Of a stretch of 64,000 nucleotides of DNA, positions 8,353 through 56,804 are shown piece after piece. Numbering within the stretch: the first letter of the stretch is position 1; each line of letters starts with the position of its first letter. Origin of the DNA: Eledone cirrhosa (Eukaryota); contig OZ024741.1 in the NCBI GenBank assembly GCA_964016885.1, positions 198,028,001 through 198,092,000 of the forward strand. Direction: 5' to 3'. The position numbers and the translations under genes were made by a program. Under the pieces are notes generated by a model, which was not told where the DNA came from, did no database searches, and saw nothing but the letters and a program-made list of their open reading frames with translations.

Positions 8353-11300
8353 AGTATTTTCCGTTGTGTTGTAATATAAATATTACACACAGTAGATTAT
8401 CAGCTCACGTAGAGTTTGCTCGACGGTTCCAGTTGTAGTTCCAAAAGTAATCCGGAGAAAAATAGAAAGATTTGAATGGATACAGTTTAGTTGAAAGGAA
8501 TTTATTGACACGTGTTTCTATAACAGTTACATAACCTAAAACAGCTGCTATCTACAAACTTTTAGTTATGCAGACATTCAATATTTCAATGTTATTATTT
8601 ACTGTCATTTCATCAGAATAATATTACTGAGGACCTATTTAGTTTTTATAGAGAATATTAGGAGGGAGGGGTGAAGTTGTTAGAAGAATAGCTGAAGGAG
8701 TGGTTTTTCGATAGCAGTGAGAATTCTTGGTGGCAGTGAGTAATTAGATTCCCATCTGTTGTTTTGACATTTTTTATAGAATATATTATTGGTTATTTTT
8801 CTAAATCTATAGAAGGATTAGAGATAGTAAAGATATGCGTGGTTGGTTTTGTGTTTGCACTTAATTAACATTCAGACTTAATTTTTCTTTCAAGTGTACG
8901 TATCCTTTCACCCACGCATTCACAAACAAATATATTTGCACACCTCTACAAAATACATATACTCACAATTCACATATTCATACTTACATATATATACACA
9001 TGCATACACATATATATACACACATGTATTCATGTACATACATACGCGCTCATGTGTATACATTTTCATACTCAACTTATCTTTATATACACACGTATAG
9101 ACACACACATATATACATACATACTCTAGTCCATGTGTACACACATACACATACATACACATCCATATACACATATATACATACATATATATATATATAT
9201 ATATACATATATATATATGTACACACATATATATATATATATATATATATAAGCACTTTAATACATGAATACACTTACATCTAACTATACACATCAAACA
9301 TATATATATATTTACTTATTTATATACATTTTCACATATATATACATACTTATGGACGTTTTTAGACACATTCATTATCGCATATTTGTACCTATTCTCA
9401 TCAGCATATCTTTCCATTATTAGTGTGGTAATTTAAGGTTATTAATATATGTTGAGAAGAGATTGTTTTTATATTTTTCTAACTAGATTAAGGTTTATAT
9501 AGTTGGGGGATGTCCCTCTTTTATGTAATATTCGGCTTGTAGTGGGAAAAAAGGGTTTTAGTTCTGTGACGGCAGAATAATGTTCGTTCAATTCTGTTAT
9601 TCAGCAGTTTCTTCTTGTGTGTGATTATGTAATAAATCTCAAGATTACACAATTTGCAGAAATTTTGGCTCCTGGAAAAGCTTTGGGTTTTAGCTAATTT
9701 TTCCCATTTTAGGGTAAACTTTTGATCGCTATCACTGAGCGTCCAAGCTTTTTCTGCTAAAGTTGTTACATTTCTTTGGCTCTGGTGTTTTATTGAGTAA
9801 GAATGCCTATACAATCGAGATTTAAACGATGTTGCCGTTGATCCCACGTAATACCACTCGTTGCCTCCGGATTTAATGGTACACTTATAAATAATATTTT
9901 TTTCCAGGCAGTTATTGCCGAGGGGGCAGTTGTCAGGATAGGTGCAGTTACAGTTGTGTACGTTGGGTTTTCTCTGGAGTAGTATTGCGGACGAACTTAG
10001 GTGTGGTTTATTTATGTTCTGTAGTGTATTGTTTACTGTTTTTTTTGTGTTCTTTGTACTTAAGTTCTTAGTGTTTTCGTTTAACCTTCTAGTATTGATC
10101 TTTTTTATGTGTTGTTCAAGGTTTAACGCTGTAGAGTATGACAGTCTTACAGTGGTAGGGTTTAGGATTTTGTGGTATTTGTGTGATGTGGGAAAATGTC
10201 TTTTAATTATTTTAAAGAAGAGTACTGGTAAATTTGTACTAATGGAACTATTGTATTCGGGGTTATACCATAAGTACTCTTTGCATCGCTTTCTATTAGT
10301 TTTGTTTGTTGGTTTACTGGTGTGCATACTATGGTAGTAAGTGTGGTTTGGTGTTGTGTTATTATATCTACCTATGTGGGATTTATTTTGGGTGTTTTGA
10401 TTGTTCCCATCTATGTACTCTATTTTGTTGAGGTAGCCTGCTTTACTAAGGGCGTTATCGTAGTACTCGGCGTGTTCCTTAAATACTTGTATGTTAGAAG
10501 ATAGACCCGAGATTCTAAGGGAAATATTTTTAGGGATAGATTTAATTATAGAGATGGGGTGGTTAGACCCAACATTTACGTATTTGAGATTTTCATTCAA
10601 TTTATGAAACGGTTTAATCAAACCAGAGTTTAAATTGAGTGTGACATCCAGGAAGTTAACTACTTTAAGGTTGTATTCATATGTTATAGTTAGTCCTATT
10701 TCGAGTAGTAGTTTTCTTATATCTTTGTGTAGTTTTTCTAGTTTTTGGTTATTAAGGTTTTTAGCTAGGAGGAGAACATCGTCGCGGTATATTCCGCCGT
10801 GGAGATTGCTGAATTTTTCCTGGAGTCTAAAGGCGATAAATAACCCCACAATATCAGTTATTTCCGCCGAATCGTTAGAGCCCATTGTTATGTCAAAGTT
10901 AGAGGGTCTATCTTTACGTACCCAATAACTGTTCTCAAATTTGACTATAGTTTTCCTAGCTTCTAATATAATCTTAATTTCATCGTTTGTAAGGTCAGAG
11001 TTATCCTTAGCAAACTTAATGGCTCTATTCAAAGTTTCAGGTGATATCGATGAGTAATATTCATCGATATCAAACTGGATAAACTTAGATTTATTCTTAT
11101 TGCTAATGCTATTAAACCATCTTATTGCTTCTTGGGTCTTCCCCCAGAGTTTAATGTTAACCTTAGCCTTAATTTGGGGGATGATTCTATCTAAGATATA
11201 TTTGCTTATTTTACCTATATCTGATTTAGAGGGGCAGATTAATCTAATTTTAGGGTCATTATCAAAGTTTACCTTGTGGTCCTTAAGATTGAAGGTGGGT

Positions 11301-11456
11301 ACCGCCGGTAAGAGTGGTCCTGTCCTATCTTCGATTCCGAGATTTTTCACTATTTCGCATGCCTCATCATTGATGTGCTTAAGGGTTACTTCACTCGTTT
11401 TTCTATATTTTTTATGTAATTCTTTTCGAATGAAGTTGTTGTATGTAGTGCAATCC
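8353..11456 (-). mobile_element. Penelope-like retroelement (C-terminal GIY-YIG, possibly Hydra clade), 5'-truncated, flanked by (TA)n
   Basis: RT+EN ORF, 3' region with HHR and AATAAA, (TA)n at both ends (8308-8351 and 11457-11474). Confidence 0.85.
8499..8625 (-). ncRNA. Hammerhead with ~91-nt stem II domain in the PLE 3' pLTR
   Basis: UUAUU-CUGAUGA-A-AUGACAGU...ACUGUUAU-A-GAAAC-ACGU-GUC-AAUAA; palindromic stem III ACACGUGU. Confidence 0.65.
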
Positions 11457-11458
11457 AT
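9521..11458 (-). CDS. PLE reverse transcriptase + GIY-YIG endonuclease (645 aa, N-terminus probably truncated)
   Basis: RT motifs QFDIDEYYSSI, FDITMGSNDSAE, GIYRDD, VNFLDVTL, SNHP; linker CNC..CP..C; EN NIIYKC..YYVGST..R..H, CKLC, CRH. The start Met lies at the (TA)n junction. Confidence 0.85.
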   Translation of the reverse strand: MDCTTYNNFIRKELHKKYRKTSEVTLKHINDEACEIVKNLGIEDRTGPLLPAVPTFNLKDHKVNFDNDPKIRLICPSKSDIGKISKYILDRIIPQIKAKVNIKLWGKTQEAIRWFNSISNKNKSKFIQFDIDEYYSSISPETLNRAIKFAKDNSDLTNDEIKIILEARKTIVKFENSYWVRKDRPSNFDITMGSNDSAEITDIVGLFIAFRLQEKFSNLHGGIYRDDVLLLAKNLNNQKLEKLHKDIRKLLLEIGLTITYEYNLKVVNFLDVTLNLNSGLIKPFHKLNENLKYVNVGSNHPISIIKSIPKNISLRISGLSSNIQVFKEHAEYYDNALSKAGYLNKIEYIDGNNQNTQNKSHIGRYNNTTPNHTYYHSMHTSKPTNKTNRKRCKEYLWYNPEYNSSISTNLPVLFFKIIKRHFPTSHKYHKILNPTTVRLSYSTALNLEQHIKKINTRRLNENTKNLSTKNTKKTVNNTLQNINKPHLSSSAILLQRKPNVHNCNCTYPDNCPLGNNCLEKNIIYKCTIKSGGNEWYYVGSTATSFKSRLYRHSYSIKHQSQRNVTTLAEKAWTLSDSDQKFTLKWEKLAKTQSFSRSQNFCKLCNLEIYYIITHKKKLLNNRIERTLFCRHRTKTLFSHYKPNIT

Positions 11459-11761
11459 ATATATATATATATATAAACAAATAACGAAACGAAATTAAAT
11501 TTCGTTTCGTTTGTAACTCACTTTTGTATGACTGACGCTTAAACAATTAAGTTAAAAATGTACATCCACATATGTATACTGAAATACTAGTATGCATATG
11601 AATACACACACGTGTACATATGTAGATGTACCGAGTTTTTCACTGGACACTTTACTGTGAGTGTCCAGCTATTCTGTATGTAAACACACAGACAAACCGG
11701 TTTTTAGAGTCATACTGGTTTTCGAGGAAACACCTTTCCTCTATTCTGCAGAAAGCCAGAC

Positions 11762-11814
11762 AGGAATATTGGACTAGTTTCGATGTTGTTACATCTCATC
11801 AGCAATATTTACCT
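11762..11814 (-). ncRNA. Minimal type I hammerhead ribozyme
   Basis: Reverse complement of the motif at 12131-12183. Confidence 0.85.
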
Positions 11815-55925: not shown

Positions 55926-56092
55926 TTGAGAATATTTTCTGCGCGTGTTTATTTGTGCCATCGTCTTCCTTTTCCGTGTTAACTCATTTAAACCGAGCCG
56001 ATGATCCGTTTGAGGTGAAACAAATTGTTCTCAGAAATGGTGTATTAACTGTTGTGGAACTACTTGTATATATATATATATATATATATATA

Positions 56093-56449
56093 TCATCATC
56101 ATCATCATCATCATCATCATTTCATTTTACGTCCGCTTTTTCCCTGCTTGCAAGGGTGGGACGGGAACTGATTCTGGCTTGATTTCTACAGCTGGATGCC
56201 CTTCCTAACACCAACCTCATTTACAGTGAGTGCTGGGTGCTTTTTTGCCGTGGCATCTCCACGACCACTTTGCAGTGGAATGATAGGGACCCCAGTCCTT
56301 ATCATCTCATTTCTACAGCTGAGTAAACTGGAGCAATGTGAAATAAAGTGTCTTGCTCAAGGACACAACACATCACCCGGTCTGAGAATTGAACTCACAA
56401 CCTTTCGATTGTAAGGCCAATGCTCTAACCCCTAAGCCACGTGCCTCCA
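56093..56449 (-). mobile_element. tRNA-derived SINE family B with RTE-like tail and (GAT)n
   Basis: Head GGAGGCACGTGGCTTAGGGGTTAGAGCA..GAGTTCAATTC; TGTGTCCTTGAGCAAGACACTTTA; tail CCCTTGCAAGCAGGGAAAAAGCGGACGTAAAA..(TGA)n. Confidence 0.8.
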
Positions 56450-56691
56450 CAATATATATATATATATTATATATGGGATTACAAATTATCGTCATAGGTA
56501 ATCCAGTTAGAGGTTGTGAATACTCCGTATTGTGGATAGTTTTAGCGCACGGCGTTGTTTGACTCAACAAGAGGTTTCCTTAGGTAGCGAGTTTGCGAGT
56601 TCTCGGGAATTCTTATGCAGGTTAATCTTGGAGTAATAATACTGAAAGTGTGAAGAATAACATGGTCAACAGTACAAAAGGGTTTTATTTA

Positions 56692-56804
56692 CAGTATTAA
56701 CAATTGTTTCATTGATTAAGTTGTCTAAAAATTGCTAATCACTTGAAGTTGTGTCACTCAATTTTAAATACAATGTATGCTTAATCAAATCATCGGAAAA
56801 ACTG
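56692..56804 (-). ncRNA. Hammerhead with ~79-nt stem II domain and CCGAUGA core
   Basis: CAGUUUUU-CCGAUGA-U-UUGAUUAAG...CUUAAUCAA-U-GAAAC-AAUU-GUU-AAUACUG; palindromic stem III ACAAUUGU. Confidence 0.55.

Follow-up and report, generated by a model that had tools for sequence, protein, structure and literature searches.

In a 64,000-nt stretch of the Eledone cirrhosa genome (contig OZ024741.1, positions 198,028,001 to 198,092,000; hereafter the window, meaning this whole stretch), three minus-strand hammerhead ribozyme motifs carry on stem II a long arm whose paired positions covary among relatives and several of whose unpaired bases are conserved across families. Judged by sequence, each of the three is a type I hammerhead motif lying within the terminal repeat of a Penelope-like element (PLE), and they represent three high-copy families (F1, F2 and F3, for sites 1, 2 and 3) that are assigned to the Hydra clade by protein motifs, the trees holding no named references. 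A first-pass annotation had proposed a conserved extended-stem-II hammerhead architecture in PLEs; covariation within the arm and a conserved rod-like fold bear this out, and we tentatively read the arm as a docking site for protein. The elements and motifs, all on the minus strand, are as follows (ORF, open reading frame; RT, reverse transcriptase; UTR, untranslated region).

8353..11459, minus: F1 copy, a 5'-truncated, young Hydra-clade PLE inserted in (TA)n
9521..11458, minus: F1 ORF encoding RT and, C-terminally, a GIY-YIG domain; 645 aa in the window, 773 aa if complete
8499..8625, minus: site 1, type I hammerhead motif; core CUGAUGA at 8616-8610; stem III palindrome ACACGUGU; predicted cut after GUC at 8507; AAUAAA at 8506-8501, doubling as the stem I 3' strand
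8519..8609, minus: site 1 stem II arm, 91 nt, an irregular rod; bulged A at 8590, AG at 8537-8536
23310..23631, minus: F2 3' remnant, short, 5'-truncated, also of the Hydra clade
23507..23619, minus: site 2, hammerhead motif; core CUGAGGA at 23611-23605; predicted cut after GUA at 23522; AAUAAA at 23512-23507
23534..23604, minus: site 2 arm, 71 nt; a 15-nt deletion took out the strand with the bulged A
56475..58366, minus: F3 copy, decayed and 5'-truncated, with 3' UTR, ending in (TA)n
57541..58366, minus: C-terminal part of the F3 ORF, broken by frameshifts and stops
56684..56804, minus: site 3, hammerhead motif; core CCGAUGA at 56796-56790 (U4C); palindrome ACAAUUGU; predicted cut after GUU at 56699; AAUAAA at 56689-56684
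56711..56789, minus: site 3 arm, 79 nt; bulged A at 56769, AG at 56726-56725

The inserts between core and GAAAC measure 91, 71 and 79 nt at sites 1, 2 and 3, as first reported. Sites 1 and 2 match the type I core (C3 U4 G5 A6 N7 G8 A9, G12 A13 A14 A15, U16 H17), from which site 3 deviates by U4C. A strict descriptor (insert of 60-110 nt, closing helix of at least 7 bp without mismatch, stem I of at least 2 bp) is passed by two of the three sites and found no match in 300 block-wise dinucleotide shuffles of the window. Stem I comprises 5, 3 and 2 adjacent pairs, stem II 7-9 bp and stem III 2 bp. The closing helices noticed earlier are present at all three sites, with lengths of 7-9 bp and, in the site 2 copy, one C.A mismatch where the family has C-G. 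At sites 1 and 3 stem III forms an exact 8-nt palindrome, which at site 2 is interrupted by a central U.U, in keeping with the earlier "(near-)palindromic"; its self-duplex is predicted at -10.3, -2.9 and -6.4 kcal/mol (sites 1-3) versus +2.4 for a monomer hairpin, and in whole-motif minimum free energy folds of the monomers the full junction does not form. Compared with shuffles, the arms fold with z-scores of -5.25 (site 1), +0.44 (site 2) and -2.89 (site 3). The site 2 arm is short because its copy lost 15 nt, a deletion found in no other of 20 fetched family loci; 71 nt is therefore the right length for this copy and not for the family, whose intact arms span 86-96 nt. As also noticed at first, mutually related PLE ORFs sit upstream of two sites, at 907 nt (site 1) and 744 nt (site 3). 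The site 2 copy has no ORF, but one is present in 6 of the 20 F2 loci, and all three sites therefore belong to the Hydra clade.

The fold of the arm was worked out on two groups of a genome-wide arm survey, group A (sites 1 and 2) and group B (site 3). Both share a fold that runs outward from a basal helix of 7-9 bp through an internal loop and 2-4 pairs to a bulged A, then through U.G and U-A pairs and a variable helix to a small asymmetric loop, in which a G is conserved, and ends in a terminal hairpin that varies. In group B (25 sequences), 83.9% of cells are paired and 51 both-side changes were counted versus 19.6 in shuffled data, while slid-register controls reach 27-42% paired; in group A (11 sequences) the figures are 87.8%, 29 versus 9.7, and 31-50%. 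Covariation in the closing helix across family members, which the first-pass annotation had left to be looked for, is thus found. In a joint table of 36 sequences, anchored on sequence motifs and with two small subgroups one column off inside, the top 3 of 1,035 column pairs ranked by average product-corrected (APC) score are proposed pairs, as are 7 of the best 25. Substitutions at paired positions common to at least three copies kept the pair in 5/5 cases, compared with 20/49 for singletons (Fisher p=0.017, on small numbers), and a model built from group B only aligns site 1 in the rod register.

Several positions are kept irrespective of pairing. The bulged A is invariant in all 36 sequences of the joint table and the loop G is present in 34; a YAG on the 3' strand is retained in both groups even opposite U.U or A.G mismatches; and the spacing between the invariant positions is fixed at 10-11 nt across groups A and B. 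The pair flanking the bulged A is always C-G in group A and always U-A in group B, which counts as one event. These invariant bases persist across families whose proteins share 35-60% identity in aligned segments. Bulges of this kind are typical protein contacts.

The first-pass annotation had also suggested a branched domain, with an internal CAUAACUAAAA/UUUUAGGUUAUG hairpin at site 1. At the three sites the comparative fold is instead an unbranched irregular rod, branched arms occurring in other families, and the hairpin was rejected as the main fold of site 1, having an ensemble probability of 5e-5 versus 0.96 for the competing rod and being 64.5% paired in 11 relatives versus 93% for the rod helix with which it shares its 3' strand. 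It scores above its own slid controls and could be a minor alternative pairing. A near-direct repeat within the F1 arm (8519-8609, minus) lets the 3' strand pair in two ways, and one copy (L390) lacks the stretch between the repeats; the repeat is a possible switch, or possibly a trace of arm growth by duplication.

Across the 3.0-Gb genome, searched with patterns and their reversed controls, the long-arm pattern CYGAKGAW-N70-100-GAAACANNTGTH gave 11,122 matches versus 21 for the control, a complementary pattern with other stem III sequences 3,952 versus 596, and the short-arm version 7,091 versus 43; the first-look candidates numbered 807, 2,320 and 2,093 for sites 1, 2 and 3. The patterns required part of the stem III palindrome, so that palindrome counts in the groups are biased upward. 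From 171 fetched sequences, 208 long-arm matches in 98 clusters were obtained, and an all-against-all comparison of 44 representatives resolved into blocks with no detectable similarity between them. Nine groups took in 76 of the 98 clusters, the remainder being singletons, nested matches or chance. Thus the single class envisaged at first does not hold, at least eight mutually unalignable arm types coexisting in the genome. Arm length in groups A and B stays at 75-96 nt, single deleted copies excepted. Groups C and D fold as three-way junctions, with both-side changes in 9/30 and 2/31 pairs, respectively (10 sequences each); examples are L121:1869-1982 and L123:1501-1603, which have two hairpins, no AAUAAA and thousands of candidates each. 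The group F arm is a long, AT-rich, microsatellite-like rod. Group H (L153, L161, L172, L340) has 47-52-nt arms and a 10-nt palindromic stem III, and one of these, L340, has a link to a Hydra-like ORF. Neither group D nor a family with 20-nt arms could be linked to an ORF, and group C offers one insecure, long-branch case.

The AAUAAA that the first-pass annotation placed close to each cleavage site does start there, at +0, +9 and +9 nt from the predicted cut (sites 1-3). It lies 0-9 nt past the cut in 15/15 group-A clusters and 6-9 nt past it in 18/21 group-B clusters, with one more at 15 nt and two having AUUAAA. However, groups C, D, F and J and the L066 group have none of it up to 20 nt from the cut, and a 20-nt-arm family does have it; it is therefore not tied to the arm and not part of the architecture. 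The hexamer is possibly a genuine poly(A) signal that stem I buries in part. The U4C change of site 3, a known variant with lowered hammerhead activity in vitro (PMC3088659), occurs in 7/21 group-B clusters and also in the 20-nt-arm family.

Assignment to the Hydra clade follows published marks, namely RWK and DKT motifs, and CxCX5C, CxxC and CxH around conserved E and N residues (PMC8557442). The F1 protein (P0001), a single ORF with RT and C-terminal GIY-YIG domains, carries RVRWK and ADKTS (the RWK and DKT motifs) and, by eye, CNCTYPDNC (the CxCX5C linker), CKLC (CxxC) and CRH (CxH), while Pfam returned no family for the truncated F1 ORF of the window. F1-type elements also show (TA)n insertion, a partial tandem pseudo-long terminal repeat (pLTR) and inverted copies. 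F1 copies share a common sequence from the ORF across the motif to a fixed end at (TA)n; in tandem copies the unit is 3,596 bp and the 773-aa ORF begins about 200 nt past the cut in the upstream repeat. Of the 150 best endonuclease matches, several lie in intact 785-codon frames. In a contig search, F1 pieces also appeared under two other organism labels. The Hydra clade tends to short elements (<3 kb) with short-loop hammerheads, whereas here the unit is 3,596 bp and the arm 79-96 nt; the short size and short loop are a described tendency and not diagnostic.

How the long arm is distributed was examined with metagenome scans and protein trees. A scan with a single protein gave no loci; an alignment-based scan gave 77 loci with Hydra-like ORFs, of which 36 had ORF-linked hammerheads (many others end too soon), and all 37 motifs in these had arms of 10-25 nt. 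Four long-spaced metagenome candidates were set aside, one being an inversion-junction chimera (z -0.38) and one enclosing a short-arm motif. In unrooted trees of 266 C-terminal profile positions (51 and 27 rows, three short rows having been dropped from the first), groups A and B form one clade (UFBoot 96 and 91), and all ORF-linked arms of at least 52 nt fall on one side of a 99-100% split from the short-arm elements, with which an 11-nt-arm family of the same genome groups. The 3' UTRs measure 410-987 nt in the long-arm lineage versus 68-521 nt in short-arm elements. As short arms are also numerous under the same pattern (7,091 matches), the long arm is a trait of a lineage and not a requirement.

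Several known systems resemble these hammerheads in part. Those of Hydra-clade PLEs (Craig et al. 2021, PMC8557442) are alike in protein motifs, (TA)n targeting, a type I motif near the 3' end and a palindromic stem III; yet loop 2 is 3-10 nt in all Hydra rows of their File S2, the octopus family included, where the present elements have a conserved domain of about 60-80 nt, and no loop there exceeds those of two plant PLE-X elements (29 and 35 nt). The minimal metazoan PLE type I hammerheads (Cervera and de la Pena 2014, PMC4209133) share a helix II of 7-8 bp, an extra unpaired base after the core, a short helix I, a weak palindromic helix III, proposed dimer activity, and solo and inverted copies, but the available part of that paper describes no large conserved domain capping helix II. 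The Anolis Poseidon element PAc (Frangieh et al. 2024, PMC11167929) is alike in having two RT starts that define a tail, an uncut insertion template and no ends at the cut; its ribozyme overlaps the ORF start, the available text describes no long arm, and protein assistance is a result for Anolis. Chrysovirus type I hammerheads (PMC13725137) have a similar topology upstream of an ORF and a bulged adenosine in a "long" helix II, but that helix is only 6 bp plus a tetraloop, helix III is long, the hosts are viral, and there is no evidence of homology. Hammerheads of Rfam clan CL00010 (e.g. RF02275, HH9) have the same core consensus. HH9 matches a 14-nt-arm motif in the window at 33.7 bits, below its threshold of 52, whereas no Rfam hammerhead model matches sites 1-3 at E<=5 and four further long-arm loci returned nothing at the gathering score; the comparison with Rfam that had been suggested thus finds the architecture not captured. 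PLE hammerheads as such are known; the long-arm domain, which we regard as a new variant, was not found in the literature searched, from which Lunse et al. 2017 and Arkhipova et al. 2017 (Terminons), possible sources of long loops, were missing.

Exact matches running across the F1 cut site number 3,647, genomic 5' junctions at the cut show no excess (3 versus 5 at a control position), and the DNA copies derive from RNA that was uncut at the hammerhead site. The 3' ends of copies fall at +39-63 nt or at +155, +212 and +225 nt (range +155-225) from the cut, and the ends of short-arm families fall into the same two classes, at about +34-52 and +100-170 nt. Two such classes and an uncut template match the two internal RT starts and uncut template of the Anolis element (PMC11167929). 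No stalling of RT at the arm was seen, as counts of exact 22-mers fall evenly from 3,647 to 2,510 to 1,631 in two successive steps, each about 105 nt long, a series confounded by subfamily differences.

Our tentative proposal, held with rather less than even confidence, is that a protein docks on the stem II arm and gates folding and cleavage of the hammerhead, the element's own RT-endonuclease being the likeliest candidate. Cleavage is predicted only for hammerheads paired with one another through their palindromic stem III, a dependence suggested by literature on other PLEs, in which dimer activity is proposed for the minimal hammerheads (PMC4209133), and by the self-duplex energies. The rod would present its bulged-A site to a protein, most probably the element's own RT-endonuclease, which, once bound, would control the timing of ribozyme folding and cutting. 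In Anolis, cleavage by the PLE hammerhead requires added PLE protein (PMC11167929). The docking reading draws on this analogy, the covariation, the retention of pairs under shared substitutions, the bases kept beyond the needs of pairing, the arm type that tracks the protein tree and the uncut templates. We consider it unlikely that in one lineage of Hydra-clade PLEs loop II has, beyond this, become an exchangeable RNA identity module, in which the folded domain of each sub-lineage (bulged-A rod, three-way junction or long rod) would be recognised by its own telomerase-like RT.

A number of points weigh against a conserved docking rod. The group-B-only model gives site 1 just 32.8 bits, little more than the 31.0 of short-arm motifs, and passed over the arm of site 2 with its deletion; the match of anchors between groups A and B is the analyst's assignment; and unguided RNAalifold runs on MAFFT alignments recovered three pairs for group B and ten, in the outer helices only, for group A. 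The structure was derived from the same sequences on which it was assessed, and related copies are non-independent and inflate the counts. In close pairs the arm is about as conserved as the flanking UTR (73 versus 71-76% identity; 53 versus 55-58%). The protein trees have no outgroup, and doubt attaches to the group-C link. The same genome abounds in a Hydra family whose arm is 11 nt, and the long arm is therefore not generally needed; nor does it set the RT start, because short-arm families share both 3'-end classes.

A less probable alternative to the docking site is that the arm is an RNA-only tertiary stabiliser, in which the first internal loop or the bulged A docks on a bipartite stem I or on the dimer partner, replacing the usual contact between loops II and I and tuning the cleavage rate. 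Contacts between stems II and I raise hammerhead activity at low Mg2+ and are proposed to offset core variants such as the U4C that is frequent here (PMC3088659), and in groups A and B an internal loop is conserved after 7-9 bp, while stem I is short and may have a distal helix beyond it. Against this, the invariant bulge would lie about 12-14 bp from the core, which on our model is beyond the likely reach of stem I, and U4C is found in the 20-nt-arm family too; nor was any covarying contact between stem I and the arm seen, although none was looked for.

We think it unlikely that the arm is simply a tolerated expansion of loop II, selected only for fast self-folding that closes stem II and with shared bases explained by common descent. 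The diversity of unalignable arm types, the microsatellite-like rod of group F, the working of short arms, the equal identity of arm and flank in close pairs and the generally longer 3' UTRs of the long-arm lineage would all suit such an origin, but the invariant unpaired or mismatched positions and their fixed spacing across groups A and B exceed what self-folding needs, and arm length in these groups is steady.

Poorer still are the prospects of a reading in which the conserved bases are RNA-processing signals, the YAG serving as a 3' splice site, so that splicing there would take away the ribozyme's 5' half, with arm and stem I masking both this site and the adjacent AAUAAA. YAG is indeed kept without covariation, the intron of D. 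virilis Penelope ends at hammerhead helix I (PMC4209133), and AAUAAA or AUUAAA follows the cut in 15/15 group-A and 21/21 group-B clusters. Yet several group-A families lack a pyrimidine tract, purines are allowed at the covarying -4 position, and genomic copies end in (TA)n and not in poly(A). Among F1 copies, 19 have a junction at the arm AG, and the 15 examined were inversions, small indels or unrelated joins, with no spliced copy and no shared donor among them; this evidence on splicing is weak, because PLE copies usually keep introns. That the conserved bases act as DNA, within an internal pLTR promoter, would suit the position of PLE promoters in the pLTR (PMC6765202) but is highly improbable, given that compensatory pairs with G.U tolerance indicate RNA structure.

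In total, the window holds about a dozen hammerhead-like motifs from several families. An inverted pair of 14-nt-arm hammerheads of a different element, with weak Rfam HH9 matches, lies directly upstream of the truncated F1 ORF (11772-11802, minus; 12143-12173, plus), near a weak remnant of a PLE endonuclease (12907-13137, minus). A second inverted pair, of 20-nt-arm U4C hammerheads from an abundant family, lies at 59303-59341 (plus) and 59660-59698 (minus). Motifs with arms of 12-34 nt were seen at 5536-5583 (minus), 5693-5743 (plus), about 7900-7932 (minus), 55998-56029 (plus) and 61924-61971 (minus). Elsewhere, locus L130 has three identical 14-nt-arm hammerheads at 311-nt spacing, a retrozyme-like tandem array. 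On the plus strand, head-to-tail copies of a non-LTR retrotransposon (LTR, long terminal repeat; 23618-25063, 26210-29635 and 30047-33192) show by eye RT and C-terminal restriction-like endonuclease motifs; one has an intact 1,141-codon frame, and the ORF of the first adjoins the F2 remnant at site 2. Two related short repeats resembling short interspersed nuclear elements (SINEs) lie by eye in opposite orientation at 57310-57480, within the F3 3' UTR, and 58510-58690.

Ribozyme counts in genomes of this kind are likely to be underestimates, because standard models miss the long-arm form, which is the commoner one here (11,122 versus 7,091 matches of the same pattern). If the unlikely identity-module reading were true, these elements would be natural protein-switched ribozymes, and the arms would give cis-specificity to dozens of co-resident families. 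In the sole PLE system purified so far, cleavage is assisted by protein and has no known binding site. Here a young family whose ORFs are intact carries a conserved accessory domain with invariant bulges, which provides a defined target for tests of binding, cleavage and transposition.

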